Source: an uncultured Gammaproteobacteria bacterium (GTDB lineage: Bacteria; Patescibacteriota; Patescibacteriia; UBA9934). From it: a DNA stretch of 32,000 bases. Shown here one piece after another: positions 4,250-29,602 of the stretch. The stretch is taken from contig CAYHFQ010000006.1 in NCBI GenBank assembly GCA_964355955.1, positions 11,633 through 43,632 of the forward strand. Direction: 5' to 3'. The notes beneath the pieces are model-generated. The model searched no databases, was not told where the DNA came from, and was given only the letters and a program-made list of their open reading frames with translations. The position numbers and the translations under genes are program-made. Each line of letters starts with the position of its first letter. Within the stretch, counting starts at the first letter, position 1.

Positions 4250-4615
4250 GTGGCTGCTTTTCTTAAAAACCTACGTTTTGCTCGCTTAGCCCTGGTTATT
4301 TGTGGTCTGTTGTTGCTGGCTGGGGTGCTGCTCGTTTGGTTTGCCTTGTTTCCGGCAGTGGAAACCTGGCGTGTTGTGCCACTCCATTATAATATTCACC
4401 TTGGTGTGGATAAGGTTGGCAAGTGGTGGGAGCTTTTTGTTCCTTCGGGGATTGGCGTAATTTTAACCTTGCTTAATGCTGGTTATGCGTCAATAATTTG
4501 GAAGCGCGAAAAGGTGATTGCTTATGCGGCGATTGTGACGGCGGTGATAGTCGATGCTTTAATTCTGATTCACTTAATTTTCCTTGTTCATTTGAACGTC
4601 ACTTATTATGCTTGA
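4250..4615 (+). CDS. Hypothetical integral membrane protein (GTG start)
   Basis: Three predicted hydrophobic helices. Overlaps the mraY start by 8 nt. Confidence 0.55.
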   Translation: MAAFLKNLRFARLALVICGLLLLAGVLLVWFALFPAVETWRVVPLHYNIHLGVDKVGKWWELFVPSGIGVILTLLNAGYASIIWKREKVIAYAAIVTAVIVDALILIHLIFLVHLNVTYYA

Positions 4616-5663
4616 TGCCTTTGCCTTGTCGAAAATTTTGGTCTTGGCCACGTTGTCGTTTTTGCTGGCCTTGGCCTGGACGCCACTTTTGACGCATTTT
4701 CTGTATCGTTTCCGTTTGGGAAAGTCGATTAGAAGTGCAGTTACGGCTCCAATGTTCGCCAAACTTCACGCTAAAAAGGCTGGAGTGCCTACGATGGGCG
4801 GGTTGCTCATGTGGGTAACGCCATTAGTGCTAGCTTTGATATTTTTCATCATCGCTGGATTAGCACCGGACTCCGCGATTGGCCAACTGAACTTCCTGTC
4901 ACGTCAGCAAACTTGGTTGCCATTATTCGCTCTGGTGGCTGCTGGCTTGCTTGGCTTAGTTGATGACTACTTGAACGTACGCGGAATTGGAGAGCATGGT
5001 GGCGGGATTCATATTCGTCATCGCTTGGTATTGTATACGATTATTGCGGCGATTGGTGCCTGGTGGTTTTACGTCAAATTGGGTTGGGATTCTCTGCATA
5101 TTCCGTTAGTCGGTAGCGTGACGATCGGCTGGTGGTATATTCCTTTGTTCATTGCGGTAATTGTCGCTACGTCATTTTCCGTTAATCAGACGGACGGTTT
5201 GGACGGTTTGGCTGGTGGGACACTGGCGTCGGCCTTTGGCGCCTATGCCGTGATTGCTTTGTTACAAGGGCAGGTCGACTTGGCTGCTTTCTGCGCGGTA
5301 ATTATGGGAGCGTTGTTCGCTTTCCTGTGGTTCAATATTTGGCCAGCCAGGTTTATTATGGGCGATACTGGGGCGATGTCGCTTGGGGTGACGCTTGGCG
5401 TGGTCGCGATGTTGACTGATTCGGCTTTGCTTTTACCAATCATTGGTATCGTCTTTGTAGTGGAAGCGGTGACGACAGCGATTCAGTTGATTTCCAAGAA
5501 GTTATTTCACAAAAAGGTGTTTTTGATTGCGCCGATTCATCATCATTTTGAAGCGAAGGGCTGGCCAGAGCCAAAAGTGGTTATGAGATTCTGGTTACTC
5601 TCTTGGATGGGGGCGGCGATTGGCTTGATTGTGGCGTTGCTCGATACCGCCTTGCTAGGATAG
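4608..5663 (+). CDS. mraY: Phospho-N-acetylmuramoyl-pentapeptide transferase
   Basis: Motifs DDYLNVRG, NQTDGLDGLAGG, GDTGAMSLG and APIHHHFE. Confidence 0.95.
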   Translation: MLDAFALSKILVLATLSFLLALAWTPLLTHFLYRFRLGKSIRSAVTAPMFAKLHAKKAGVPTMGGLLMWVTPLVLALIFFIIAGLAPDSAIGQLNFLSRQQTWLPLFALVAAGLLGLVDDYLNVRGIGEHGGGIHIRHRLVLYTIIAAIGAWWFYVKLGWDSLHIPLVGSVTIGWWYIPLFIAVIVATSFSVNQTDGLDGLAGGTLASAFGAYAVIALLQGQVDLAAFCAVIMGALFAFLWFNIWPARFIMGDTGAMSLGVTLGVVAMLTDSALLLPIIGIVFVVEAVTTAIQLISKKLFHKKVFLIAPIHHHFEAKGWPEPKVVMRFWLLSWMGAAIGLIVALLDTALLG

Positions 5664-6797: not shown

Positions 6798-6823
6798 GTA
6801 GATTGTAGAGAGTAGATAGTAGA
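6798..6823. repeat. Heptad array (GTAGANN)x4 in the ftsW-murG spacer
   Basis: GTAGA at 6798, 6805, 6812 and 6819: exact 7-nt period. Confidence 0.8.
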
Positions 6824-7917: not shown

Positions 7918-8189
7918 ATAAGGCTCAGTCGTTACGACCAATGTGGATTGGTTTAGCTTGTATGCTTGGGGGCGTGTTGGTAATTTGGTTGACGTTTCAT
8001 TTGGGTCGTGGTGCCACGCAGCAAGTTGTGGATACTACTGTAACTACGCCAGTAACCGAAAATGACAGTACGGGCGGCACAGCCTGTATTCAGGTGATTA
8101 CGCCGGCGAAGAATTTGACGACGGGTGAGGTTGTTGATTATCCAACGCCATGTGATGTGCCAGAAGGTTGGGAGGTAGTGGCAAAATAA
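7914..8189 (+). CDS. Small secreted/anchored protein with a Cys pair
   Basis: ATGA overlap with the murG stop. One TM segment, then C...TPCDVPEGWE. Confidence 0.55.
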   Translation: MNKAQSLRPMWIGLACMLGGVLVIWLTFHLGRGATQQVVDTTVTTPVTENDSTGGTACIQVITPAKNLTTGEVVDYPTPCDVPEGWEVVAK

Positions 8190-8258
8190 TTTAAAAAGAA
8201 GAACCGCTGCCTCACGCGCGGCTCTTCAAGAGAAGTTGAAGAGGGGTGAGGTGGCGGT

Positions 8259-8666
8259 TCAGAAGAGGGGAGGCTTGATGTCCATGATGGCGTCAGTGGC
8301 CTTGTTCAGCCGGCTGATCTCGTCGGTGCTGAAGATGTTTGGTCGCAGAGACTCTTCAGCGAACCAGGTGTGGATCTTGCCGGTTGGTACGAGTGGGCAG
8401 ACGGGCTTGAAAGACTGCTCCACAACACTATGTTGACGAAGGGCCACGGCGAGGGCGAGGTGCCAGTGGCGGAGGATCAACTCGCTCTTTTGGATGTCCT
8501 TGTAGCGCAGGACCTCGATGATGGTGGCCCAGACTTGGGCGAACTGCTCATCGGTCATCAGAGGAGTCTCGTTCTCCCAGACGATGGGTCGAGCGGAGCT
8601 GAAGATGGGCGGAGGCTCTGGGGCCTTGAAGGGCCAGGCTGGACTGCGTGGAGAACGGAAAGCCAT
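8259..8666 (-). CDS. Hypothetical 135-aa protein, codon-usage outlier
   Basis: The most protein-like of four overlapping ORFs here. All 11 Ile codons are ATC and all 8 Phe codons are TTC. SD AAGGA and a TTGACT-N17-TACATT promoter-like pair lie upstream on the minus strand. Confidence 0.5.
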   Translation of the reverse strand: MAFRSPRSPAWPFKAPEPPPIFSSARPIVWENETPLMTDEQFAQVWATIIEVLRYKDIQKSELILRHWHLALAVALRQHSVVEQSFKPVCPLVPTGKIHTWFAEESLRPNIFSTDEISRLNKATDAIMDIKPPLF

Positions 8667-8786
8667 GTGGGCATCCTTTTTATCAGCTGGGCTGATGGGG
8701 TGTGGGGGTGGTGGTGTGTCCGGTTGGACGGCGAAAATGTACTCCAGTTTTAAGCTGAAGTCAATAATGTTAGCAGTATTTTGTGA

Positions 8787-9524
8787 CTATTTGGTTTTCT
8801 TGTAGACACCGGTAACGAGGTTATGCTTAATGCGAAAGAGGTCGTTTAAAGTGCGCCAAGCGTCGTGGATAGGGCGGACGCGGGAGTCCTTGGAGTTGTA
8901 CCAGGAGACGGCAACTTCCTTGATTTTGTAGTGAAAAATGGATTGAGCGATAGCTAAAACTTCCATGTCGAAGCCGAAGCCGGTGGTGCGTTGTTTGGCA
9001 AAGATGTTGTGAGCAGCCGCCTTGGTAAAGAGTTTGAAGCCGCATTGCGTGTCGCGAATGCCGCGAATGAGGAGCGTTTGAATGAGGAGGTTGCCGAGTC
9101 GACTTAGGATGATGCGGTAAAGAGGTTGCTTGATGACGACATTACTCGTATGGAGATGGCGTGAGCCGATGGCGACTTCGTGGGTGTTCATGTAGGGGAG
9201 GAGCTTTTCGACTTCGCGGAGTGGAGTGGAATTGTCCGCGTCCATGAAGAGGGCGAGCTTGCCAGTACTGGCTAGCATGCCGTGCTTAACAGCGTGACCT
9301 TTACCCTGGTTTTTAGCGAAGGGGAGGACACGGAGCATCGGTAAGAGTTTCTGGAGGTCGGTAGCAACCTCGACTGTATTGTCCTTGCTGCCGTCGTCGA
9401 CCACAATAATCTCCACCGTTAAGTCTGAGGTGATGAGATATTTGGCAATGTCACGAAGAGTAGCGGGCAGACGCTCCGCTTCGTTATAGCAAGGAATGAT
9501 GATGCTGAGATCCGGTGTCTTCAT
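8787..9524 (-). CDS. GT2 polyprenyl-phosphate glycosyltransferase
   Basis: Motifs LSIIIPCYNEAERL, VVDDGSKDNT and FMDADNS (DXD). Confidence 0.9.
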   Translation of the reverse strand: MKTPDLSIIIPCYNEAERLPATLRDIAKYLITSDLTVEIIVVDDGSKDNTVEVATDLQKLLPMLRVLPFAKNQGKGHAVKHGMLASTGKLALFMDADNSTPLREVEKLLPYMNTHEVAIGSRHLHTSNVVIKQPLYRIILSRLGNLLIQTLLIRGIRDTQCGFKLFTKAAAHNIFAKQRTTGFGFDMEVLAIAQSIFHYKIKEVAVSWYNSKDSRVRPIHDAWRTLNDLFRIKHNLVTGVYKKTK

Positions 9525-11460: not shown

Positions 11461-11489
11461 AGATTGTGTGAAGTATAGCACGATGACGT

Positions 11490-11636
11490 GAGACTCGGGA
11501 GGGGATCGCCCGCGCCTAAAGCCTCGTCGTCACTTGGCTTTGGCTGGGCACCAGCTCGCGGTTCCGTGTGGTCACGGAACATCGCTCCGCTGTTCGATCC
11601 CCGACATAGGCCAAGCAGTTGGCCTATTCTCGGGCA
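11490..11636. other. GC-rich structured patch containing tRNA-Lys T-arm-derived fragments
   Basis: GAGACTCGGG at 11490-11499. GGGGATCG (11501-11508) is complementary to CGATCCCC (11595-11602). Hairpins: AAAGCC/GGCTTT (11518-11541), GTTCCGTG/CACGGAAC (11561-11580) and ATAGGCCAA/TTGGCCTAT (11606-11627). GTTCGATCCCCG (11592-11603) is identical to the tRNA-Lys T-arm. Confidence 0.4.
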
Positions 11637-11663
11637 CAAAAAAACAGCCTAGGGCTGTTTTTT
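11636..11663. terminator. Bidirectional terminator after tRNA-Lys
   Basis: AAAAAAACAGCC-TAG-GGCTGTTTTTTT. Confidence 0.75.
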
Positions 11664-11821: not shown

Positions 11822-13276
11822 ATGGACTTATTAAAACAAGAGAGTTTTCAAGATGCGATTGTGACCGTAATGGGACTGGGGAGATATGGTGGCGGAGGGG
11901 GGTTGAGCGCTACTAAATGGTTACTCCGACATGGGAGCCAGATTGTGATTACGGATTTGAAAGATGCTGCCGAGCTTAAGGAAAGCGTCGACGGCGTGAT
12001 GGAGTGGTTCAATAAGTATCGTGAGCTATTTCCAGATAGGACGATTTATCAGCCGTTGTTTATTTTGGGTCAACACAGGCCGGAGGATTTTTTGAGTGTG
12101 GATTGTGTAGTGCAGTCGCCGGGCGTGCAGAGTGAAGTGGAGTTTGTGCAGCAGGCCAAGGACAAGGGTGTAGCGATAGAGTCGGACGTCAGCCTTTTCT
12201 TCCGGTACTTTCCATTCCCGACGATTGCGGTGACTGGCACGCGGGGCAAGACGACTACTACACGTTTGCTTGGAGCGATGCTGAAGAAGATGGATGAGGG
12301 TGCTGTGATGGCTGGTAATATTGTGATGTCGCCGCTTGAGGTGCTTGATGAATTAATAGCCAAGAAGTCGCCGACGCCGGTGGTGATTGAATTGTCTTCC
12401 TGGATTTTGGAGAGTTTACCGACTGTTTTTTCCGACTTGAAGAAGGGGCCAGATATTGCGGTGATCACGAACGTCTTCCCGGATCACTTGAGCCGTTATG
12501 CAGATTTTGACGCTTATATCGCGTCGAAGGAGATAATGATAGCCAAACAGACGCCAGCCCAGTTTACAGTATTGAATTATGATAACGAGCCACTGCGGAA
12601 GTTGGCGGAGAAAGTGACCGGTAAGCTGTTTTGGTGTTCCGGTACGTCGCAAGAACATGACGGTTGCTATGTAAAAAATGGCCAGGTGGTGTTCCGTCAG
12701 GATAATTTGGAAACGGTTATTTTGCCGGTAGTTGAGCTTGGTTTGCAGAGTCCAGAAAATTTGGAAAATGTGTTGACGGCGGCTTGTGCGGCGATGTTGC
12801 GTGGTGTTAAAGTGGCTGATGTGGCTGCGACGCTCAAAGAATTTGTTGGTGCCAGCGAGCCACAAGAGTTGGTGCGCGAGGTCGACGATATTACTTTTAT
12901 CAACGATACAGTGGCAATTACGCCGAATGCGACAATTGAGGCACTCAAGAAGTTCGGCGGGCACGGCGACGTGGTGTTGATTGCTGGTGGCGAGGACCAG
13001 AGTGTTGATTATAAGGAGTTGATTGAGGCTATTGCTAGGTCATGTAAGCACGTCATCTTGCTGCCTGGCACAGCGTCGGACAGTTTTGAGACGATGTTGC
13101 AGGGTAAAATAGAGACTGAACGGGCACTGGAGATGGCCGACGCGGTAATGAAGGCGAGGGCGGCAGCGGTGCGCGGCACGGTAGTCCTGTTGTCGCCAGC
13201 TGCGCCAGGTGCTCCACTTTTTGCGAATGAGTTTGTACGAGGGGAGCAGTTTAGAGACGCTGTCCGAACCTTATAA
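11822..13276 (+). CDS. murD: UDP-N-acetylmuramoylalanine--D-glutamate ligase
   Basis: Rossmann-like N-terminus VMGLGRYGGG. Mur ligase P-loop VTGTRGKTTTTRL. C-terminal LLSPAAPGAPLF..F..RGEQF. Confidence 0.88.
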   Translation: MDLLKQESFQDAIVTVMGLGRYGGGGGLSATKWLLRHGSQIVITDLKDAAELKESVDGVMEWFNKYRELFPDRTIYQPLFILGQHRPEDFLSVDCVVQSPGVQSEVEFVQQAKDKGVAIESDVSLFFRYFPFPTIAVTGTRGKTTTTRLLGAMLKKMDEGAVMAGNIVMSPLEVLDELIAKKSPTPVVIELSSWILESLPTVFSDLKKGPDIAVITNVFPDHLSRYADFDAYIASKEIMIAKQTPAQFTVLNYDNEPLRKLAEKVTGKLFWCSGTSQEHDGCYVKNGQVVFRQDNLETVILPVVELGLQSPENLENVLTAACAAMLRGVKVADVAATLKEFVGASEPQELVREVDDITFINDTVAITPNATIEALKKFGGHGDVVLIAGGEDQSVDYKELIEAIARSCKHVILLPGTASDSFETMLQGKIETERALEMADAVMKARAAAVRGTVVLLSPAAPGAPLFANEFVRGEQFRDAVRTL

Positions 13277-13550
13277 TAGGCGGGGTTACCACGCCCCGCT
13301 GTATCTGTCTTTGCGAGCGTCAGCGAAGCAATCTTGGCCAGCGATTCGCCGTTCCAGTCAACGCGAGACTCGGGGAGTCCCTTTCTTTCTCCGTCGGGCG
13401 TTTAGACGATCGACAATTACTATTGAATGTGAATTGTCGACATATAAACGCGCGTCCCTCGGTCGACGAAAGGGACATCCCACTCGTCTTCGTTGACTAC
13501 GGGCTCGATAATACGTTTAATCTACCAACTACCGACTACCAACTTTTCTT
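13277..13550 (+). repeat. 274-nt modular GC-rich intergenic element (copy A)
   Basis: Modules AATAGGCGGGGTTACCACGCCCCGC (13275-13299), GTCTTTGCGAGCGT (13307-13320) and GAGACTCGGGG (13365-13375). Hairpins at 13410-13440 and 13454-13476. GATAAT at 13507-13512. Heptads CTACC at 13522, 13529 and 13536. Confidence 0.6.
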
Positions 13551-14876
13551 ATGGGTCTCCTCCATACAATTAAATCCAAAATACCTTCAGCCTGGCTACA
13601 GCCGTACCATTATGTTTTGGCGCGGGGATCGGCCTTGGTTTATGGTAATCCGTCGAATAAGCTGATAGTGATTGGTGTGACGGGCACCAAGGGCAAGAGT
13701 TCCACCACGCAGATGATGGCGCAGTTACTGACGGCGTCGGGTAAAAAAGTGGGCTATACGGGGACGGCCGGGTTTTCGATTGCGGGACAGGTGATTGAGA
13801 ATAGAATGAAGATGACGATGCCGGGGCGGTTTGTGTTGCAACGTTTGTTGCGAGCAATGGTGAAAGCTGGTTGTGAGTATGCGATTATTGAGACGTCGTC
13901 GCAAGGTTTGTTGCAGTATCGTCATTTAGGGATAAATTACGATGTGGCAGTTTTTACTAATTTGAGCCCGGAGCATATTGAAGCGCACGGTGGTTTTGCG
14001 GCCTATCGGGCGGCGAAGAAGTTGTTGTTTACGCACTTATTGATGAGAGTGCACAAGATCATTGACGGTCAGAAAATTGATAAAGTGATTGTCACGAATG
14101 GCGATGATGAGGCGAGTGAGTACTACGCTGATGCGCCGGCGGATAAGAAGTTTAGTTTTTCTTGGCACGGCCAGGCGTCGGCGAACAGAATTGTACCAAC
14201 GAGTGTTATTCGTGATGAAAACGGTTTGCGGATGACGATAGACCATGTCGATTTTGCTGTGCCGCTGGTGGCTGAATTTGAACAACAAAATGCCTTATGT
14301 GCGATTGCTACGCTAGCCTCAGTGGGGATTCCGTTGACGCAGTTGGCTAGGGCGGCCCAGAGTTTGCAGTCTATTCCGGGACGGTTTGAACGGATTGTGG
14401 GTGGTCAGCCGTTTACGGTTATTGTTGACTATGCTTATGAACCGAAAGCGATCGAGACTTTGTTGCGTTCCGTTGAGCCGTTGAAGCCTAAACGAATAAT
14501 TGGCGTGCATGGTTCGGCTGGTGGTGGTAGGGACGTGGCACGCCGCGAAAAGATTGGGCGTTTGGCAGGTGCCAAAGAAGACGTAGTGATTGTGACCAAT
14601 GAGGATCCATACGACGACAATCCGGAGGAGATTGTGCGGATGGTGGCAGACGGGGCGAGGGCGGTGGGGAAGACTGATGGTCAGAATTTGTTCGTGATAA
14701 TGGATAGACAAGTGGCGATAGATAAGGCTATGCAGTTAGCTCAGCCAGGGGACGTGGTACTACTGACCGGTAAAGGATCGGAGCCGGTCATGGCTGTGGC
14801 TGGTGGCGTTAAGCTGCCTTGGGACGATAGAACTGCAGCGCGCAAGGCTTTAGCTAAACTTGGTTACAGCGTATGA
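13551..14876 (+). CDS. murE: Mur ligase, MurE-like, with a very short N-terminal domain
   Basis: P-loop GVTGTKGKSSTT starts at residue 42. Also LTGKGSE and PWDDR near the C-terminus. Located in the dcw context directly after murD. Confidence 0.75.
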   Translation: MGLLHTIKSKIPSAWLQPYHYVLARGSALVYGNPSNKLIVIGVTGTKGKSSTTQMMAQLLTASGKKVGYTGTAGFSIAGQVIENRMKMTMPGRFVLQRLLRAMVKAGCEYAIIETSSQGLLQYRHLGINYDVAVFTNLSPEHIEAHGGFAAYRAAKKLLFTHLLMRVHKIIDGQKIDKVIVTNGDDEASEYYADAPADKKFSFSWHGQASANRIVPTSVIRDENGLRMTIDHVDFAVPLVAEFEQQNALCAIATLASVGIPLTQLARAAQSLQSIPGRFERIVGGQPFTVIVDYAYEPKAIETLLRSVEPLKPKRIIGVHGSAGGGRDVARREKIGRLAGAKEDVVIVTNEDPYDDNPEEIVRMVADGARAVGKTDGQNLFVIMDRQVAIDKAMQLAQPGDVVLLTGKGSEPVMAVAGGVKLPWDDRTAARKALAKLGYSV

Positions 14877-16812: not shown

Positions 16813-17496
16813 ATGATTCGTTTTACCAATGTCAATAAAGTCTACAAACCAACAACTCATGCTTTGAGTGGCATTAGTTTTCATGTTAAACCAGGGGAGT
16901 TTGTGTCGATTGTTGGTTCGAGTGGATCGGGCAAGACGACGCTGGCTAAGTTGTTGTTTGCAGAGGAACGGCCGACGAGCGGCAAGATTGTGGTGGGGGA
17001 TTGGGATATTACGGCTATTCATCGGTCAGAAATTCCAACTTTGCGGCGGCAGATTGGGGTAGTGTTTCAAGATTTTAAGTTGCTCGGCCGCAAGACGGTG
17101 TATGAGAATGTGGCTTTTGCGTTAGAAGTTGCAGGGGCGGCAAATGCGAGGATCAAAGAAGTAGTGCCGCAAGTGCTGAAGATTGTGGGCTTGGGCGACA
17201 AGCATGAGCGTTATCCCAACCAGCTTTCAGGCGGTGAACAGCAGCGCGTGAGTATTGCGCGAGCCTTGGTGCACCGGCCCAAGATTATTGTGGCCGACGA
17301 GCCAACTGGTAACCTCGACACCGTCACGTCGCGCGAGATTATTGAGTTACTGAAAAAGATTAACGAGTTTGGGACGACGGTGGTGCTCGTGACGCACGAT
17401 AGGGATATTGTGAATGCGCTCAAAAAGAGGGTGTTGACGATCAACGGTGGCAAGATTGTGAGTGACGTCGAGCATGGGAAGTACATGCTCGGTTAA
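16813..17496 (+). CDS. ftsE: Cell-division ABC ATPase FtsE
   Basis: Walker [10 protein letters not shown], signature LSGGEQQRV, Walker [13 protein letters not shown]. ftsX lies downstream. Confidence 0.9.
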
Positions 17497-17771
17497 AGAT
17501 CTAATCCGTCTTTGCGAGCGTTAGTAATAGGCGGGGTCACCGTCCCCCGCCAGTAGAGACTCGGCTCCACGGCCAAGGCTCGGGGACATTACTTCGCGGG
17601 TCCTGCCGACTGCGGACCCCGTTCGGTGCTCGCAAGCTGCGCGCCGCCCGGGGGCCTCCCTCCGCGTCACCCGCTAAAGGAATTAGCCTGCCTCTCGCTA
17701 CTTGGCCTTACAGGTTCAATAATTCGTCAAATCTACTTTCTACCTTCTACAATCCACTAGCTCACTACTCT
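17497..17771 (+). repeat. 275-nt modular GC-rich intergenic element (copy B)
   Basis: GTCTTTGCGAGCGT at 17508-17521. Hairpin module AATAGGCGGGGTCACCGTCCCCCGCCAG at 17526-17553. GAGACTCGG at 17556-17564. GGGTCC/GGACCC at 17598-17619. AATAAT at 17718-17723. Heptads TCTAC at 17732, 17739 and 17746 (TCCAC at 17753). Confidence 0.6.
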
Positions 17772-18683
17772 ATGCGAACAATCCTCCGCGTCATCAAGTT
17801 TACAGGTCAGAGTCTGTGGCGCAACGCCTGGTTGTCGCTGATAACGCTGACGATTTTTGTGCTGACGCTGATGACGGTCAATGCGGTGTTGTTGGTCAAT
17901 GTGGTGACGAGTAGTGCGATTAAGGCGGTGCAGAATGAGGTACAGGTGGCGGTTTACTTTGTGCCGGGGACGAGTGAAGCCACGGAGAAAGCAGTGCGTG
18001 GCTATCTTCTCGGTTTGAGTCAAGTAAAAACGGTGGAGGTGATTACGGCTGAGCAAGCGTTGCAAAACTTCAGGGATAAGAATGCAGGTGATCCAACTGT
18101 TCTCTCAGCACTCGACGAGGTAGGCGGTAATCCGTTTGGGGACGCGGTGGTGGTGTCGGCCAAGTCGCCTGACGATTTCTCTTTCATTATCGAAGCAATC
18201 AAGACGCCAGAATTCGCGCCGTCAATTAAACAGACGGATTATACGGATTATCAGGTGGTGATTGAAAAGCTAACGTCGTTTACGGATAAGTTACGTTTGG
18301 CTGGCTTGGTGTTGGCTGGTTTCTTTGGGCTCATTTCCATGTTGATTATCTTCAATGCTATTCGTATTGCTATTTACGTCCACAGAGACGAGATTGCGAT
18401 TATGAAGTTGGTAGGGGCGCAGGATTGGTTTATTCGCGCGCCGTTCTTGTTGGAAGCTGTGCTTTTGTCCTTGTTAGCAACGGTAATTATGACGGGTGTG
18501 GTATTGGCGTCGACTAAGGCGCTGGATGTGCCGCTCATGCAATATTTTGGTCAGGCTAACTTGAGTTTGTGGAGTTACTTCACGAGTAACGCTTTAGTTA
18601 TTTTTGGTGGTGAGTTCTTGGGCCTGGCAATCCTCAGCGTGTTGACGACGGTCTTTGCGATTAGGAAACATTTAAGAGTTTAA
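17772..18683 (+). CDS. ftsX: Cell-division permease-like protein FtsX
   Basis: N-terminal TM segment, an extracytoplasmic domain, three C-terminal TM segments, and EIAIMKLVGAQDWFIR. Confidence 0.88.
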   Translation: MRTILRVIKFTGQSLWRNAWLSLITLTIFVLTLMTVNAVLLVNVVTSSAIKAVQNEVQVAVYFVPGTSEATEKAVRGYLLGLSQVKTVEVITAEQALQNFRDKNAGDPTVLSALDEVGGNPFGDAVVVSAKSPDDFSFIIEAIKTPEFAPSIKQTDYTDYQVVIEKLTSFTDKLRLAGLVLAGFFGLISMLIIFNAIRIAIYVHRDEIAIMKLVGAQDWFIRAPFLLEAVLLSLLATVIMTGVVLASTKALDVPLMQYFGQANLSLWSYFTSNALVIFGGEFLGLAILSVLTTVFAIRKHLRV

Positions 18684-20483
18684 GCGGAGCCATTCTTCTT
18701 CTTCGGAAGCGAGGAGAGTGGTGAGTTCTTTGAGTTCACGGTTTTTTTCTGGTGCGTAGTCGGTGGGGTTGTCAAAGAAAAATTGGAGGAGTTCGCTTTT
18801 CTTTTTGTCTTGCTCGGCCATTAATTTTTCTAGTTGAGCGATTTGCCGCTGTTTGGTTTTTTGTTCCAGGCGACGGCGTTGGCGTTCGAGTTCACTTTCA
18901 TTCTGGCGGGGGGCGGTGACCCCGCCTATTGCGCCGTCGACGTCAGCGGTAAGGACTTCTTCTAGGCTGGCGACGTAATCCTCGTAGGTGTCGGGGTAGG
19001 TGCGCACGGTGCCGTTACTTACTTCGAGTAAACGATTGGCCACGGTGTTGACGAAGGTGCGGCTGTGGCTGACGAAGATGACGGTACCGCCGTAGTTGGC
19101 CAGGGCGTCGGCCAAGGCTTCTGAGGTCTCGAAGTCGAGGTGGTTAGTTGGCTCGTCGAGCAGAAGGACGTTGTGGGCGTGCAAAAGAATACCGGCTAAA
19201 CAGAGGCGGGCTTTTTCGCCACCGGACAGAACAGAGACAGTTTTGCTTAAGTCGTCGCGGCGGAAGAGGAAGTTGCCGGCCATGCGGAGGACGTCTTCTT
19301 CTTTAGCATCGACCGGGGCGCAACGGCGGAGGTATTCGTCAACGCGATCGCTGGGGCGGAGGGCGGCTTCCACATGTTGAGCGTAGTAGCCAAAGTCGGC
19401 CTTGTGCCACCAGGCTATTTTGCTATCTTCGCCGAGTGGCGGAAGTTCGCCGGCGAGGGTTTTGAGCAGAGTCGTTTTGCCTTGGCCGTTGTTGCCGAGA
19501 ATGACTACTTTGTCGCCACGAGGAATTTCGAAAGAGATATTGTCGGCGATGACTTTGCTGCCGTAACCGATAGCGAGATGTTCGACGCGGAGAATACTGC
19601 CGGGCTTGGTGACGACGGGCGGGAGGGCAATGCGGGCGGTGGCGAGTTTGTTGTCGATGCTAATAGTGTGGAGTTTAGCAATAGCTTTGAGTTTGGATTG
19701 GGCTTGTTTGGCTTTGCTGGCTTTGTAGCGGAAACGGTCGACAAAGTCTTGCAGATGTTCTTTCTGCGCCATGATCTTCTTGTTAGTGTTTTGGATGTAG
19801 CCGGCCTGTTCTTCTTTGAACGCCAAATAAGATTCAACGTCACCGGGGAAAAAGGTGAGGCGGCCGTGGGCGACTTCCAAGGTGGAGGTGCAGGTGCGTT
19901 TGAGGAATTCGCGGTCGTGGCTAATGACCAGGATGCTGCCGCGGAAGGTTTGCAGGACGTGTTCGAGGAGCAAGAGGGTGGTGAGGTCGAGGTAGTTGGT
20001 TGGTTCGTCGAGTAGGAGAAGATTAGGGTCAGCAAGAAGCATGGCGGTTAGTTTGACGCGCATGCGGTAGCCGCCGGAGAGACTGGCGGCGACGGTGGTG
20101 AGGAGGTCGCGTTTGAGTTGGAAGCGACCGGACATTTTGGCGCATTCCCAGTCGGCTTTACCGCTGACCCGCATGAGGAAGTCGAGGACGGTTTCGGTTG
20201 GCGGGAACTCGGCGTGTTGCTCAACGTAGCCCAAGCGGACGCCGGGGAGGTGTTTGATTTGGCCCGCATCTAGCTCTTCTTGACCCAGGATCATTTTGAA
20301 GAGGGTTGACTTGCCGGCGCCGTTGCGACCAATGACGGCGGTCTTTTGCTCGTCGTTAATGACGATGTTGGCGTCGTCAAAAATGACGGTATTACCGTAT
20401 TTTTTGCTAAGGTCAGTGATTTCTAGAAGTGGGCGAATATGGGCCTGATGATAGCTTAATTGACAAAATTTGGCCAATACCAT
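18672..20483 (-). CDS. ABC-F family ATPase (two ABC cassettes, no TM domain)
   Basis: GRNGAGKST / LSGGYRMRV and GNNGQGKTT / LSGGEKARL. Charged coiled-coil C-terminal tail. 12-nt convergent overlap with ftsX. Confidence 0.9.
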   Translation of the reverse strand: MVLAKFCQLSYHQAHIRPLLEITDLSKKYGNTVIFDDANIVINDEQKTAVIGRNGAGKSTLFKMILGQEELDAGQIKHLPGVRLGYVEQHAEFPPTETVLDFLMRVSGKADWECAKMSGRFQLKRDLLTTVAASLSGGYRMRVKLTAMLLADPNLLLLDEPTNYLDLTTLLLLEHVLQTFRGSILVISHDREFLKRTCTSTLEVAHGRLTFFPGDVESYLAFKEEQAGYIQNTNKKIMAQKEHLQDFVDRFRYKASKAKQAQSKLKAIAKLHTISIDNKLATARIALPPVVTKPGSILRVEHLAIGYGSKVIADNISFEIPRGDKVVILGNNGQGKTTLLKTLAGELPPLGEDSKIAWWHKADFGYYAQHVEAALRPSDRVDEYLRRCAPVDAKEEDVLRMAGNFLFRRDDLSKTVSVLSGGEKARLCLAGILLHAHNVLLLDEPTNHLDFETSEALADALANYGGTVIFVSHSRTFVNTVANRLLEVSNGTVRTYPDTYEDYVASLEEVLTADVDGAIGGVTAPRQNESELERQRRRLEQKTKQRQIAQLEKLMAEQDKKKSELLQFFFDNPTDYAPEKNRELKELTTLLASEEEEWLRLNS

Positions 20484-21344: not shown

Positions 21345-21400
21345 TGTGGATAAGTGGTCTACATTCAACGTATACGTTGAATGTAGACCACTTATCCACA
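21345..21400. repeat. Perfect 56-nt palindrome (28-bp arms); minus-strand terminator-like; arms end in consensus DnaA boxes
   Basis: All 28 pairs checked base by base. TGTGGATAA at 21345-21353 and TTATCCACA at 21392-21400. On the minus strand it is followed by CCTCTTTTTGATTTC. Confidence 0.85.
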
Positions 21401-22039: not shown

Positions 22040-22113
22040 GTAGAATGTAGATGGTAGAGAGTAGAAACTCATAAGCAGAATGAGCCGTCTACCGACTACA
22101 ATCTACATTCTAC
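22040..22113. repeat. Facing heptad arrays (GTAGANN)x4 and (NCTACNN)x4
   Basis: GTAGA at 22040, 22047, 22054 and 22061. CTAC at 22089, 22096, 22103 and 22110. GTAGAATGTAGAT (22040-22052) is the exact complement of 22101-22113. Confidence 0.8.
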
Positions 22114-26749: not shown

Positions 26750-26821
26750 TATATTCGTATAGTGATTCTATTCGGTTGTGTTATACTTGAATTATTAGCC
26801 AAGATTCAAGCTTTAGAATAT

Positions 26822-29602
26822 ATGACAACCAATCATAGAAGTCGCCGTTTCACGAGCGGAATATTCTTATTTTCTGCTTTGACTGTGTTCGTGGTATTCG
26901 CAGCTGTGGTTCTGCTAAGCTCGTCGCCACTGCGGAGTTGGCTGAGGCAGGTGACGCTCGATAAGGCTGGTATTAATGCGGCCTCGGCCGACGCTCCTGT
27001 GACTGCTGTTAGTTTGGGGTCAGCTAATATTTCCGAATTGACGGGAGAAGTGACACTGGATGCGACCGGTATTAAAACGATTACAGCCGGAGATGTTAAT
27101 AATGATGGATATAGTGATTTTTTGGTAGCTTCCAAGACTAATGATGATGCTGGACTAAACGCTGGGGCTGCATATCTGGTCTATGGAAGGTCGACGGTGT
27201 TGACTTCAGAAAGTTTGGGCGGCAGTTCAAACACAGTGGTCGAATTTACTGGTGAAGCGGCGAGCGATTATGCGGGTACGATAGTTGGGCCGGCAGGTGA
27301 TGTGAACAATGATGGATATGCTGATTTTCTAATAACTTCATATCAGCCAGGACCAGGTGTTGGTAATGGTCAAACGTATTTAATTTATGGCCAGGCCGCT
27401 ACTTTTGCGTCGACAACCAGCTTAGGAGCAGCTGGGATTGTTAAATTCACGGGTGAGGCGCTGAACGATGCTGCAGGATCGATGGCTAATGGTGTTGGTG
27501 ACGTGAATAATGATAGTTACGACGATTTCATGATTGGAGCTACGGCGAATGATGATACTGCGCTAAACGCTGGCGCGGCTTACCTTATTTATGGTCAAGC
27601 GGCGCCCTTAGTGTCGGCTAATTTAAGTACAGCTATTGAATTTGCTGGTGAGGCGACTGCTGATACTGCGGGAGTATGTATTTCAGGTGGCGACTTTAAT
27701 AATGACGGGTATAGTGACATGCTTATTTCAGCCTCGACCTATGCTGCTAATAACTTAGGCCGAACGTACCTCTTCTACGGTAAAGCGGAGGCTTTTACTT
27801 CTGCCAACCTTAGCACAGCAGATGCTATTTTTACTGGCGAGGTAGCAGAGGATTCATCGGGTATAAATATTGACTCGGCGGGCGATGTAAATAATGATAC
27901 ATACGACGATATTATTATCGCTGCTTCAGCTAATGATGATGCGGGGACTGGCGCAGGAGCTGTTTACCTGATCTACGGCCAGGCTGCTCATTTAGCTTCT
28001 GCTAGTTTGAGTACCGCCGTAGAGTTTACTGGTGAAGCTGCTGGTGATGCGGCTGGTAATTCAGTGAGTAAGGCAGGTGATATAAATGCTGATGGTTACG
28101 ACGACTTCTTGGTTGGCGCCCCGTTAAATAATGATGCGGCGAGTGATGCTGGAGCGGCTTACTTGATTTACGGCCAAGCGGCTGCCTTGACGGCGGCTAG
28201 CTTAAGCACGTTTGTTGAGTATACTGGAGAAGCCGCTAGCGATAGAGCAGGTAATAGTGTTAGTACCGGTGGCGATATAAATAATGATGGTTATCTTGAT
28301 TTGTTGATTAGTAGTAGATATAGCGATGATAATGCTGTTGATGCTGGAGCAGTTTATATTGTGTATTATCAGCCACCAACAGTGTCTCTGACGGCAGCCA
28401 CGCAAACTGTGGCTGAGAGCGTGGCGTCGGGTACGGTGACGGCTCAGCTGGCCTTGGCTTTTCCATATACCGTAACGGTGCCTTATACGGTTACTGGTAC
28501 AGCGACTGGTGGGGGGACGGACTATACTTTAGCGAATGGTAATATTACTATTCCGGTTGGTACAACGAGTGGTGATGTGAGCTTCACGGTTTTTGATGAT
28601 TTTACATATGAGCTTGATGAGACGATGATTGTGACGATTAGTCGACCAAGTTACGGAACATTGTCTGGCACCACGGTGCAAACTATTACTATCACCAACA
28701 ACGATACTCCTTCCAAAGTAATATCTAACCCAGCTACGACGGCTGCTAAAACAATTACAGTTTTGACGCCAATAATAGCTACAGAAATAGTTGAGGGTTC
28801 AACGATGGGTGTAACTTGGCAATATACTGGGGTTATTCCAGCGGTGTCGGTGTATGTGTCGACTAACGGCGGGACGAGCTGGACGGTAATGAAAGCCAAT
28901 ATCTCGAATGAAGGATCGACGACGTTTGCTGCGCCTTTTGTGACAACGAGTCAGGCCTTGGTGAAGGTTGAAGGGACTGATTTGGCGACGGTCTTAGCGA
29001 CGGGGATTAGCGACCCATTTTATTTGCTGAAAGCGGCTGGTGACGTACCAACGGAGATTATTGTCATTCCAGAGACTCCGATTAGCACTGGAGCTGGCTC
29101 GACAGAAGCTGAAACGTTAATAGCCACTTGGCCAGCTGCGGTAAGTGTGGATACGCTGATTAAAATTAGAGGTGATGGCGATGAGTCGACGACTTATGAC
29201 GCTGTAGTTTATGCGCTGAGTGCTGACGGCTACCGTCATGCTTTCCCGAATGAGAGCGTCTACTTTACTTGGTATAGTAGCTTTGATGATATAACAAAAA
29301 TATCGGCGGCTGACATGGCGAAGATTAAACTGGGGAGTAACGTGACTTACCGGCCAGGTAGCAAGATGGTTAAGTTTACAACAGGAAATAAGGTTTACGC
29401 AGTAGATCGAGGCGGTGTGTTGCGTTGGGTGACGACCGAAGCCGCGGCACGAGTATTGTATGGTAATGATTGGAATACTAAAATTGATGACATTTCCGAT
29501 GCCTTGTTTGGTAGCTACAGCTTTGGCGCCATTATTAATTCGGAAGTCGACTACGACCCAAATGGATTTACTGACGTGGTGAACCCGGGTGATTCGCTGT
29601 AG
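26822..29602 (+). CDS. Large surface protein: signal anchor, seven FG-GAP repeats, a Calx-beta-like domain and a C-terminal domain
   Basis: Seven units of GD(V/I/F)NNDGY(S/D)DFL...NAGAAYL(I/V)YG spaced about 65-70 aa apart (nt about 27086-28382). Then TVSLTAATQTVAESVASGT...VTGTATGGGTDY...DDFTYELDE. I prefer the ATG at 26822 (MTTNHRSRRF plus TM). Confidence 0.8.
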   Translation: MTTNHRSRRFTSGIFLFSALTVFVVFAAVVLLSSSPLRSWLRQVTLDKAGINAASADAPVTAVSLGSANISELTGEVTLDATGIKTITAGDVNNDGYSDFLVASKTNDDAGLNAGAAYLVYGRSTVLTSESLGGSSNTVVEFTGEAASDYAGTIVGPAGDVNNDGYADFLITSYQPGPGVGNGQTYLIYGQAATFASTTSLGAAGIVKFTGEALNDAAGSMANGVGDVNNDSYDDFMIGATANDDTALNAGAAYLIYGQAAPLVSANLSTAIEFAGEATADTAGVCISGGDFNNDGYSDMLISASTYAANNLGRTYLFYGKAEAFTSANLSTADAIFTGEVAEDSSGINIDSAGDVNNDTYDDIIIAASANDDAGTGAGAVYLIYGQAAHLASASLSTAVEFTGEAAGDAAGNSVSKAGDINADGYDDFLVGAPLNNDAASDAGAAYLIYGQAAALTAASLSTFVEYTGEAASDRAGNSVSTGGDINNDGYLDLLISSRYSDDNAVDAGAVYIVYYQPPTVSLTAATQTVAESVASGTVTAQLALAFPYTVTVPYTVTGTATGGGTDYTLANGNITIPVGTTSGDVSFTVFDDFTYELDETMIVTISRPSYGTLSGTTVQTITITNNDTPSKVISNPATTAAKTITVLTPIIATEIVEGSTMGVTWQYTGVIPAVSVYVSTNGGTSWTVMKANISNEGSTTFAAPFVTTSQALVKVEGTDLATVLATGISDPFYLLKAAGDVPTEIIVIPETPISTGAGSTEAETLIATWPAAVSVDTLIKIRGDGDESTTYDAVVYALSADGYRHAFPNESVYFTWYSSFDDITKISAADMAKIKLGSNVTYRPGSKMVKFTTGNKVYAVDRGGVLRWVTTEAAARVLYGNDWNTKIDDISDALFGSYSFGAIINSEVDYDPNGFTDVVNPGDSL

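Follow-up and report, generated by a model that had tools for sequence, protein, structure and literature searches.

A probable mosaic of interspersed repeats between murD and murE in a narrow lineage of Uhrbacteria-like Patescibacteria

Composition of the murD-murE spacer

We analysed a 32,000-nt stretch of DNA from an uncultured bacterium of the Patescibacteriota (contig CAYHFQ010000006.1, positions 11,633 to 43,632; hereafter the window) and, within it, the spacer that separates murD from murE (spacer A), together with a second spacer located between ftsE and ftsX (spacer B). Spacer A is probably a mosaic of selfish interspersed repeats, similar to the bacterial interspersed mosaic elements (BIMEs), that lies upstream of murE's own leader in one narrow Uhrbacteria-like lineage of the Patescibacteria, or candidate phyla radiation (CPR). 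It is composed of a 30-nt repetitive extragenic palindromic (REP) unit, a short module (module 2), a 143-nt palindromic core (A-core) and a 52-nt tail. Its repeats are mobile between related genomes and its REP family is associated with a REP-associated tyrosine transposase (RAYT). Loci used for comparison are designated by L numbers and proteins by P numbers.

The genes murD (11822-13276; TIGR01087, 325.7 bits) and the MurE-type ligase gene (13551-14876; TIGR01085 murE, 334 bits) are exactly 274 nt apart, and ftsE (16813-17496) and ftsX (17772-18683) are separated by 275 nt. The original prediction, made from the letters of the window, had described the two spacers as sibling elements of almost equal length built from the same modules in a different order. 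All the motif coordinates it gave for spacer A proved correct on recheck: AATAGGCGGGGTTACCACGCCCCGC at 13275-13299, GTCTTTGCGAGCGT at 13307-13320, GAGACTCGGGG at 13365-13375 within the A-core, the inverted arms TCGACAATT/AATTGTCGA at 13410-13418 and 13432-13440, and the inverted arms GTCCCT/AGGGAC at 13454-13459 and 13471-13476. The recount of G+C over 13281-13400 agrees as well (74/120), and so does the swapped order of the first two modules in spacer B, where the GTCTTTGCGAGCGT module is found at 17508 and the REP hairpin at 17526. The 14-mer GTCTTTGCGAGCGT has two matches in the window at up to two mismatches (0.23 expected), a number reached by 0 of 100 shuffles, and the hairpin head AATAGGCGGGGTNACC has three (0.02 expected), the third of which had been overlooked and lies on the minus strand at 18915-18930, within an ABC-F gene. 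The sequence GAGACTCGG was dropped as a stand-alone module, its 7 matches at up to one mismatch against 5.07 expected not being significant.

Aligned with each other, spacers A and B are identical in 128 of 301 columns, and their likeness is limited to the short modules and the tail. Of the parts of spacer A, no more than the REP unit, a portion of module 2 and the tail have counterparts in spacer B; the core of spacer B (B-core, 139 nt) is unrelated to the A-core. The two spacers are thus not two copies of one 274-nt element, as had been proposed, since the cores at 13356-13498 and 17571-17709 represent two distinct repeat families, and their near-equal lengths look coincidental because these main bodies are unrelated. 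The proposal of a mosaic and not a simple duplication is borne out by the differing places of the 30-nt hairpin unit relative to the GTCTTTGCGAGCGT module; the modules appear reordered because an independent REP unit landed on opposite sides of module 2. Both spacers are identical in the independent assembly L081 and therefore do not represent an assembly artefact. Repeat-bearing spacers are rich in G+C (59% for spacer B and for 11482-11663, 52% for spacer A), most other spacers ranging from 18 to 48%. The spacer at 11482-11663, located between a gene for a PMT-like membrane glycosyltransferase and tRNA-Lys, contains GAGACTCGGG, and its orthologue in L083 holds a unit of the family present in both L085 spacers.

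The REP unit and its transposase

The REP unit of spacer A (13275-13304, plus strand) consists of AATA, GGCGGGGTTACCACGCCCCGC and TGTAT, the first AA being the end of the murD stop codon TAA; its G+C stem of 8 bp and loop of 6 nt give a predicted fold of -15 kcal/mol. Members of the family are imperfect palindromes of 30 nt with a G+C stem of 7-8 bp and a loop of 6-7 nt. Among 33 copies in Uhrbacteria loci, the conserved span extends from -4 (AATA) to +5 (YANRA), which amounts to 30 nt; the 5' tag AATA followed by G (ATAG) is kept in 28-31 of them, and the flanks are unrelated in all. The unit is missing at the orthologous position of L085, where module 2 directly follows the murD stop codon without a hairpin, and the REP unit of the window is therefore a discrete indel of about 28-30 nt. 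A second unit, of the GTCACCG subfamily, is located in spacer B (17526-17555, plus strand), so that each spacer holds a single unit on the plus strand. The third one in the window (18901-18930, minus strand) lies in frame in the ABC-F ATPase gene (18672-20483, minus strand), encodes IGGVTAPRQN and is identical to the unit of spacer B at 27 of 28 positions.

A search for the REP pattern in a collection of species-representative genomes returned 18 matches, found only in three metagenome-assembled genomes (MAGs) of Candidatus Uhrbacteria and in one unclassified bacterial MAG. Ten exact-pattern copies are carried by LJ_bin-3226, while three REP copies are present in the 32-kb window and six in the 12.7-kb locus L089. 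Viral contigs scanned for the REP pattern and for the 5' end of the A-core gave no match, nor did spacer A when compared by blastn with phage and plasmid collections.

The search for a Y1 or RAYT transposase that the original prediction had suggested was positive. P0122, a protein of 161 aa, matches NF047646, the NCBI equivalog model of REP-associated tyrosine transposases, with 101.7 bits (cut-off 80) and contains HFH and WQDSFFDY. The genome from which the window originates very probably encodes this RAYT, at locus L089. The gene (4644-5129) has REP units around it at 4372 (plus strand), 4601 (minus), 4933 (minus, within the gene) and 5131 (minus), the outermost pair (4372 and 5131) being in inverted orientation. 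The unit at 4933 is read as RGMVTPPI and the one at 5131 lies right behind the RAYT stop codon. In all seven RAYT homologues examined, including P0122-P0127, a peptide derived from a REP unit separates the HUH motif from the WQDSFFDY region. In addition, a 119-aa open reading frame (ORF) located beside two REP units in L002 matches Pfam Y1_Tnp (E = 4.5e-8) and has P0122 as its best full-length relative (73% identical). The L002 RAYT was dropped as a case of a gene flanked by two REPs, one of the units being within the gene and this copy of the RAYT being truncated.

REP units inside genes

About half of 21 REP copies sit in open frames of at least 120 aa, where they mostly read IGGVTAPR(Q/H)(N/E). 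Copies on the sense strand almost all use the IGGVTAPR frame, though a second sense frame is also open. The MurE of L086 (P0009), which is 72% identical to the MurE of the window, has an insertion of 11 residues, LAGYGDPAYRG, corresponding to the reverse-strand reading of the REP unit at L086 10937; on this alignment it is a clean case of an 11-codon REP insertion. The class II ribonucleotide reductase gene of L089 contains two in-frame REP units (3409 and 3901) at sites that are orthologous in two to three genomes, and both units fall outside the region alignable to solved structures. Intragenic REPs are already on record, as a minority elsewhere (PMC3733652). Judged by that comparison, the in-gene location of REP units in this lineage is unusual in degree, not in kind.

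In the ABC-F gene, the orthologue from L085 (6760-6810) carries TIDEPTKPNANE where the window (18895-18945, minus strand) has AIGGVTAPRQNE. The two segments show the same spacing of I, T, P, N and E and are identical at 15 of 30 nt. The L085 segment may be a decayed REP copy, in which case the window copy would have been kept pristine. ABC-F was dropped as a clean REP insertion, L085 having at this place a segment of similar length that is possibly a decayed copy.

The palindromic cores and module 2

The A-core (13356-13498, no strand assigned) is a 143-nt imperfect palindrome with a rod-like fold, devoid of ORFs, whose terminal inverted repeats AGTCAACGCGAGAC / GTCTTCGTTGACT pair with each other in the predicted fold. 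Its minimum free energy is -66.2 kcal/mol on the plus strand (z = -7.2) and -68.5 kcal/mol on the minus strand (z = -6.7). The two separate clean hairpins that had been noticed in spacer A are both inner parts of this single rod. A copy of the A-core (95% over 105 nt) is present in L083 (11656-11759) at a non-orthologous position, between the gene that follows murE and divIC, two genes that are 2 nt apart in the window. Further copies, at 86%, are found in L009 and in L084 (at least one, probably two). The A-core reconstructed from L084 is also 143 nt long and retains the rod-like fold, both partners being changed in four of its pairs. At its end, just downstream of ftsE, the L084 contig contains the 5' part of an A-core, and at its start, upstream of murE, the 3' part of one; the two ends overlap by 34 identical nt, which suggests that A-core copies occupy both spacers in that genome. 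Contigs L083, L084 and L009 terminate inside an A-core copy, and L001 and L082, both from the window's own strain, begin inside that of the window, which is how assemblers behave at repeats and palindromes.

The B-core (17571-17709, no strand assigned) is a G+C-rich unit of 139 nt that starts 15 nt after the REP unit and has the terminal inverted repeat GGCCAAG/CTTGGCC; its fold is not significant (z = -1.3). A copy of the B-core (90% over 145 nt) occupies a non-orthologous position in L083 (4831-4975), flanked by a small ORF that lies downstream of murG and by a gene for a glycosyltransferase. The genes flanking the L083 core copies are only about 80% identical in DNA. Moreover, two B-core-like units (86% and 77%) are both in frame in an ORF of L002 coding for a 696-aa membrane protein, and opposite the second of them (residues 435-460) homologues lack 27-33 residues. 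The region 8003-8787 of the window, a stretch of 785 nt with a 135-aa minus-strand ORF (8259-8666) and a longer small ORF after murG, has as its counterpart in L083 only 167 nt (4809-4975), mostly a B-core copy.

Module 2 (13305-13353, plus strand), which comprises GTCTTTGCGAGCGTCAGCGAAGCAATCTTGG and a linker, is 96.7% identical over 30 nt to L085 1366-1395, directly behind the murD stop codon. Its truncated form in spacer B, ATCCGTCTTTGCGAGCGTTAG (17504-17524, plus strand), includes the exact 14-mer at 17508. No significant fold is predicted for module 2 (z = -0.25).

The tail and leader signals

The tail of spacer A (13499-13550, plus strand) is made up of ACGGGCTCGATAATACGTTTAATCTAC, with GATAAT at 13507, the heptads TCTACCA-ACTACCG-ACTACCA and 11 nt preceding the murE ATG. 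That of spacer B (17710-17771, plus strand) similarly contains TTACAGGTTCAATAATTCGTCAAATCTAC and heptads upstream of the ftsX ATG. Compared by eye over 17710-17740, the two tails have about 25 of 31 positions in common, with TC[G/A]ATAAT[A/T]CGTNNAATCTAC as the shared sequence. The alignment with L083 resumes at 13536, so that the last 15 nt or so before the murE ATG still match. The resumption of synteny at this point and the heptad arrays found before other genes lead us to take the heptad leader for a native expression signal, and the tail of spacer A is probably the promoter or leader of murE itself and no part of a mobile unit. The likeness of the two tails may reflect a shared promoter or the trace of a gene conversion. 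A scan with the sigma-70 consensus found no promoter in either tail; TTGACT (13493) and TTTAAT (13516), 17 nt apart, can be read in spacer A, the second hexamer failing the rule of the scan. A terminator-like hairpin, GACTCGGGGAGTC, is followed by a T-rich run at 13367-13379.

Arrays of three to five (N)CTACNN heptads are located 10-35 nt upstream of several starts. In the window they occur at 13521-13539, 17732-17750 and 22088-22113 on the plus strand and at 22040-22065 and 6798-6823 on the minus strand; others were seen in L016 (2903 and 6117) and L004 (2053). The genes behind them include murE, ftsX, two divergent genes near 22 kb and the dnaK- and dnaJ-like genes of L016. The array that precedes murG is reversed, and a TATAAT comes after it. 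These arrays may constitute a lineage-specific promoter or leader signal that replaces the Shine-Dalgarno sequence. A TATAAT-like hexamer is found 4-12 nt before the ATG, without a Shine-Dalgarno sequence, upstream of 11822, 16813, 1679, 6835, 23446 and 29603 (minus strand), among others, which suggests that the mRNAs of such genes could be leaderless or nearly so. A Shine-Dalgarno-like sequence does precede a few genes (2549 and 546).

Comparison with related genomes

The distance between murD and murE varies among the relatives of the window. The genes adjoin or overlap each other in L020, L022, L024 and L025 (MurE identity 54-59%) and are separated by about 27 nt in L021 (60%), about 100 nt in L018 (63%), 25 nt in L087 (73%), 151 nt in L086 (72%), 217 nt in L085 (84%) and 282 nt in L083 (about 88-89%). 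For ftsE and ftsX, the gap measures 0-25 nt in L020, L035 and L050 and 3 nt in L086. In the majority of relatives, both gene pairs are adjacent or nearly so. On this comparison of gene spacing, spacers A and B are lineage-specific insertions. None of the modules is present in 63 metagenome loci with MurE identity of up to 63%, which were used solely as evidence that adjacency of the genes is the normal state.

Among the closest relatives, L083 has a MurD that is 93% identical to that of the window, and its DNA is about 80% identical through the genes. The alignment stops at 13277 and resumes at 13536, with 282 nt of unrelated sequence between these points. The content of the spacer therefore changes more rapidly than the genes on either side diverge. 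The orthologous spacers of L083, L085, L086 and L087 lack the A-core, and the murD-murE spacers of L085 and L086 each carry other palindromic units. In L085, both spacers hold a third repeat family (90% over 69 nt) that is also present in L083, L013, L015 and L016. The modules are thus found well beyond the two loci in which they were first noticed, and copies lie within ORFs and beside divergent genes and not, as had been considered, always between co-directional genes.

Alternative explanations

The spacers could have looked alike for other reasons, the one with most in its favour being true paralogy, that is a segmental duplication or an ectopic gene conversion over 3.9 kb followed by insertions that scrambled the order of the parts. 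Spacers A and B both contain module 2 and the tail, which a comparison with about 1 Mb of related sequence found otherwise only in the orthologous spacers of L085 and L084; moreover, the L085 spacers share a repeat with each other (90%, 69 nt), and the overlap of the L084 contig ends (100%, 34 nt) suggests the same there. The shared sequence, however, amounts to only some 20 nt of module 2 and 30 nt of tail, the cores are unrelated, and the family held in common varies by genome, a pattern at least equally compatible with permissive gaps having been colonised repeatedly. We regard paralogy as a possible but less favoured origin of the spacers as a whole; module 2 and the tail may owe their presence in both spacers to local duplication or gene conversion, which would then complement the account by mobile repeats, not replace it. 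A structured RNA is considerably less likely. On that explanation, spacer A would encode a cis-regulatory leader of murE or a small RNA, with a paralogue before ftsX, and would coordinate peptidoglycan synthesis with division. The very stable fold (z = -5.0 for the full spacer, -7.2 for the core), the positions paired in the window and in L084 that change on both sides, the location directly upstream of a gene, the tail common to murE and ftsX and the terminator-like hairpin with its T-rich run are all compatible with such an RNA. Yet both strands fold equally well, as expected of a DNA palindrome, and spacer B folds no better than shuffled sequences (z = -0.66). Neither spacer has a match in Rfam even at E values up to 10, and a scan of the whole window at the Rfam gathering thresholds found three tRNAs only. 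The A-core occurs at non-orthologous sites in L083 and L009 and is absent from the four orthologous spacers mentioned above, while the B-core and the REP unit are also found in frame within ORFs.

Two further explanations appear highly improbable. The spacer might be the remnant of a gene once located between murD and murE, as the distant relatives L023, L058 and L035 have 650-980 nt with ORFs at this place and one frame of spacer A is open throughout. A tblastx comparison of spacers A and B with those gaps gave a best E value of 0.12 in inconsistent frames, however, so that the frame-consistent protein similarity expected of decayed coding sequence is not seen; the other five of the six frames of spacer A contain stops, and the sequence is explained instead by repeats that have homologues of their own. 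The tRNA origin that the original prediction had thought conceivable for the hairpin module has equally little in its favour. The REP stem does contain the GCGGG/CCCGC of the T-arm of tRNA-Lys (GCGGG-TTCGATC-CCCGC), but the best ungapped match between the two is 13/29, a chance-level score that 717 of 1000 shuffles also attain. There is no agreement in the loop, the tag or the flanks, and a 5-bp G+C stem is not diagnostic.

A mosaic of selfish repeats is the reading that we prefer, and several observations weigh against it. The tag is ATAG/AATA, and GTAG and CGTC, one of which is conserved and unpaired at one end of canonical REPs (PMC3733652), are absent. REP copies lie within genes in about half of the cases, an unusual proportion for REPs. 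For the cores, the analysis revealed no target-site duplication: the flanks of five A-core copies are without a direct repeat, in a comparison that had no clean filled/empty pair showing both junctions. No parent insertion sequence (IS) or transposase with matching core ends was found in the loci read, no whole-genome search having been aimed at one. The A-core and the B-core each occur once in the approximately 45 kb attributable to the source genome (window and L089), in which the presence of several core copies would follow by extension from its relatives. At orthologous sites, REP units are 83-93% identical and their 90-nt flanks 46-89%; repeats that are conserved at least as well as coding flanks fit selection or concerted evolution and not just junk. 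In three genomes the two spacers share one repeat family, which could mean targeting or function. Finally, what we say below of mRNA effects we infer from the sequence alone.

Some of these points lend themselves to another reading, in which the RAYT/REP pair and the palindromic cores are maintained as a host-integrated layer acting on DNA or mRNA, and set for instance the boundaries of transcripts or the stoichiometry of cell-wall and division genes. This reading is based on REP units that remain near-unchanged at orthologous sites of essential genes (ribonucleotide reductase, RAYT) while their flanks diverge, and on a repeat family shared by the murD/murE and ftsE/ftsX gaps in the window, in L085 and probably in L084. 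We consider it unlikely.

Proposed mechanism

In the preferred account of selfish repeats, the RAYT would bind the folded single-stranded REP hairpin and cut beside the unpaired ATAG/AATA tag, thereby spreading REP units. This is proposed by analogy with the E. coli RAYT, which spreads GTAG-tagged REPs, and with the IS200/IS605 enzymes (PMC3733652, PMC3116915). The 143-nt and 139-nt cores would be non-autonomous units, similar to REPINs or to MITEs (miniature transposable elements with inverted repeats), moved by an enzyme that recognises their hairpin or termini. Spacers A and B would then resemble each other as gaps in operons that are permissive for insertions, both having been entered by one REP family and having kept a similar leader; gene conversion between them may contribute to the likeness. 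Effects of the repeats on expression can be envisaged, and we infer them as follows. If the mosaic is co-transcribed, the REP hairpin and the rod of -66 kcal/mol could form a 3' barrier, be attacked by RNase or cause attenuation, and would shield the 3' end of the upstream cistron or reduce read-through; expression of murE would in that case require transcripts that start within the tail.

Other features of the window

A perfect gapless palindrome of 56 nt (28 + 28 nt) is located at 21345-21400, between the thymidylate kinase gene and the next gene. Its ends resemble DnaA boxes (TGTGGATAA ... TTATCCACA). It is about 95% conserved in another Uhrbacteria genome (L006 3707-3757), and a related palindrome is found at L089 1-50. 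It may represent another repeat family or a DnaA-binding site. In addition, a repeat of about 195 nt is present in tandem at least seven times in an ORF of 946 aa (26762-29602), each copy encoding GDVNNDGY-type motifs (FG-GAP/VCBS-like).

Implications for genomes of the candidate phyla radiation

Genomes of CPR bacteria, or Patescibacteria, are about 1 Mb in size, tightly packed and usually regarded as repeat-poor. Here, palindromic repeat families together with a RAYT split essential operons, namely the division and cell wall (dcw) cluster and ftsEX, and place in-frame repeats in essential proteins such as a MurE orthologue, ribonucleotide reductase and ABC-F. The repeats also have practical consequences: they break metagenome assemblies, five contigs starting or stopping inside them, and they mislead gene callers. 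Public gene calls start MurE 28-54 codons late (L081 1287, L083 10001, L085 1667) or run ftsE or ftsX into the spacer (L084 3372, L085 5530), and both look like annotation errors caused by repeat-filled spacers. Conversely, these repeats could serve as strain markers. They provide a compact system for asking how REP/RAYT pairs persist, and, in organisms that have hardly any regulators, make it possible to examine if hairpins inside operons modulate gene expression.

Comparison with known systems

REP/RAYT systems, or REPtrons, are known from E. coli, Pseudomonas and Stenotrophomonas (PMC3116915, PMC3733652, PMC5581495), and a search of a library of papers for REP, RAYT or MITE elements in CPR bacteria found no report. 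The family described here resembles those systems in its palindrome, which is short, imperfect and rich in G+C and has on one side a tag that is conserved and unpaired, in its many dispersed copies with unrelated flanks, in its RAYT homologue ringed by REP units and in the location of copies just downstream of stop codons inside operons. It differs from them, apart from the sequence of the tag, by a conserved unit of exactly 30 nt, by the share of copies, about half, that lie in frame in genes, mostly as IGGVTAPR, by the REP unit inside the RAYT gene itself in all seven homologues and by its host, a CPR bacterium with a genome of about 1 Mb.

The mosaic arrangement recalls the BIMEs of E. coli, which Gilson et al. 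in 1991 reportedly described as combinations of REPs with other short conserved motifs in transcribed intergenic space. As in BIMEs, a REP is combined here with other recurring motifs in an order that varies by locus, between co-directional genes of operons and within a size range of 40-500 nt. In contrast, BIMEs alternate the orientation of REPs of two types, whereas each spacer here has one REP and a large unrelated core. The arrangement also differs from a REPIN, since the REP units of spacers A and B are singlets and the arms of the A-core are unrelated to the 30-nt REP.

Palindromic MITE-like repeats include ERIC/IRU, Correia (NEMIS) and REPINs (PMC10969869, PMC3116915). The A-core is comparable to MITEs in being small, non-coding and intergenic, with terminal inverted repeats, one long hairpin on either strand and a position that varies between related strains. 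Unlike MITEs, it has neither a target-site duplication found nor a parent IS seen in the loci read.

The in-frame copies bring to mind another group, the Rickettsia palindromic elements (RPEs), which Ogata et al. are said to have described in 2000 as inserted in frame in protein genes. The B-core-like and REP units are likewise in frame in genes of a reduced genome that remain unbroken (MurE of L086, the reductase of L089 and ABC-F of the window). RPEs are mentioned in PMC3733652 and PMC10969869. In sequence, the units described here are unrelated to RPEs; moreover, the REP unit spans only 10-11 codons, far fewer than an RPE, and is accompanied by a RAYT.

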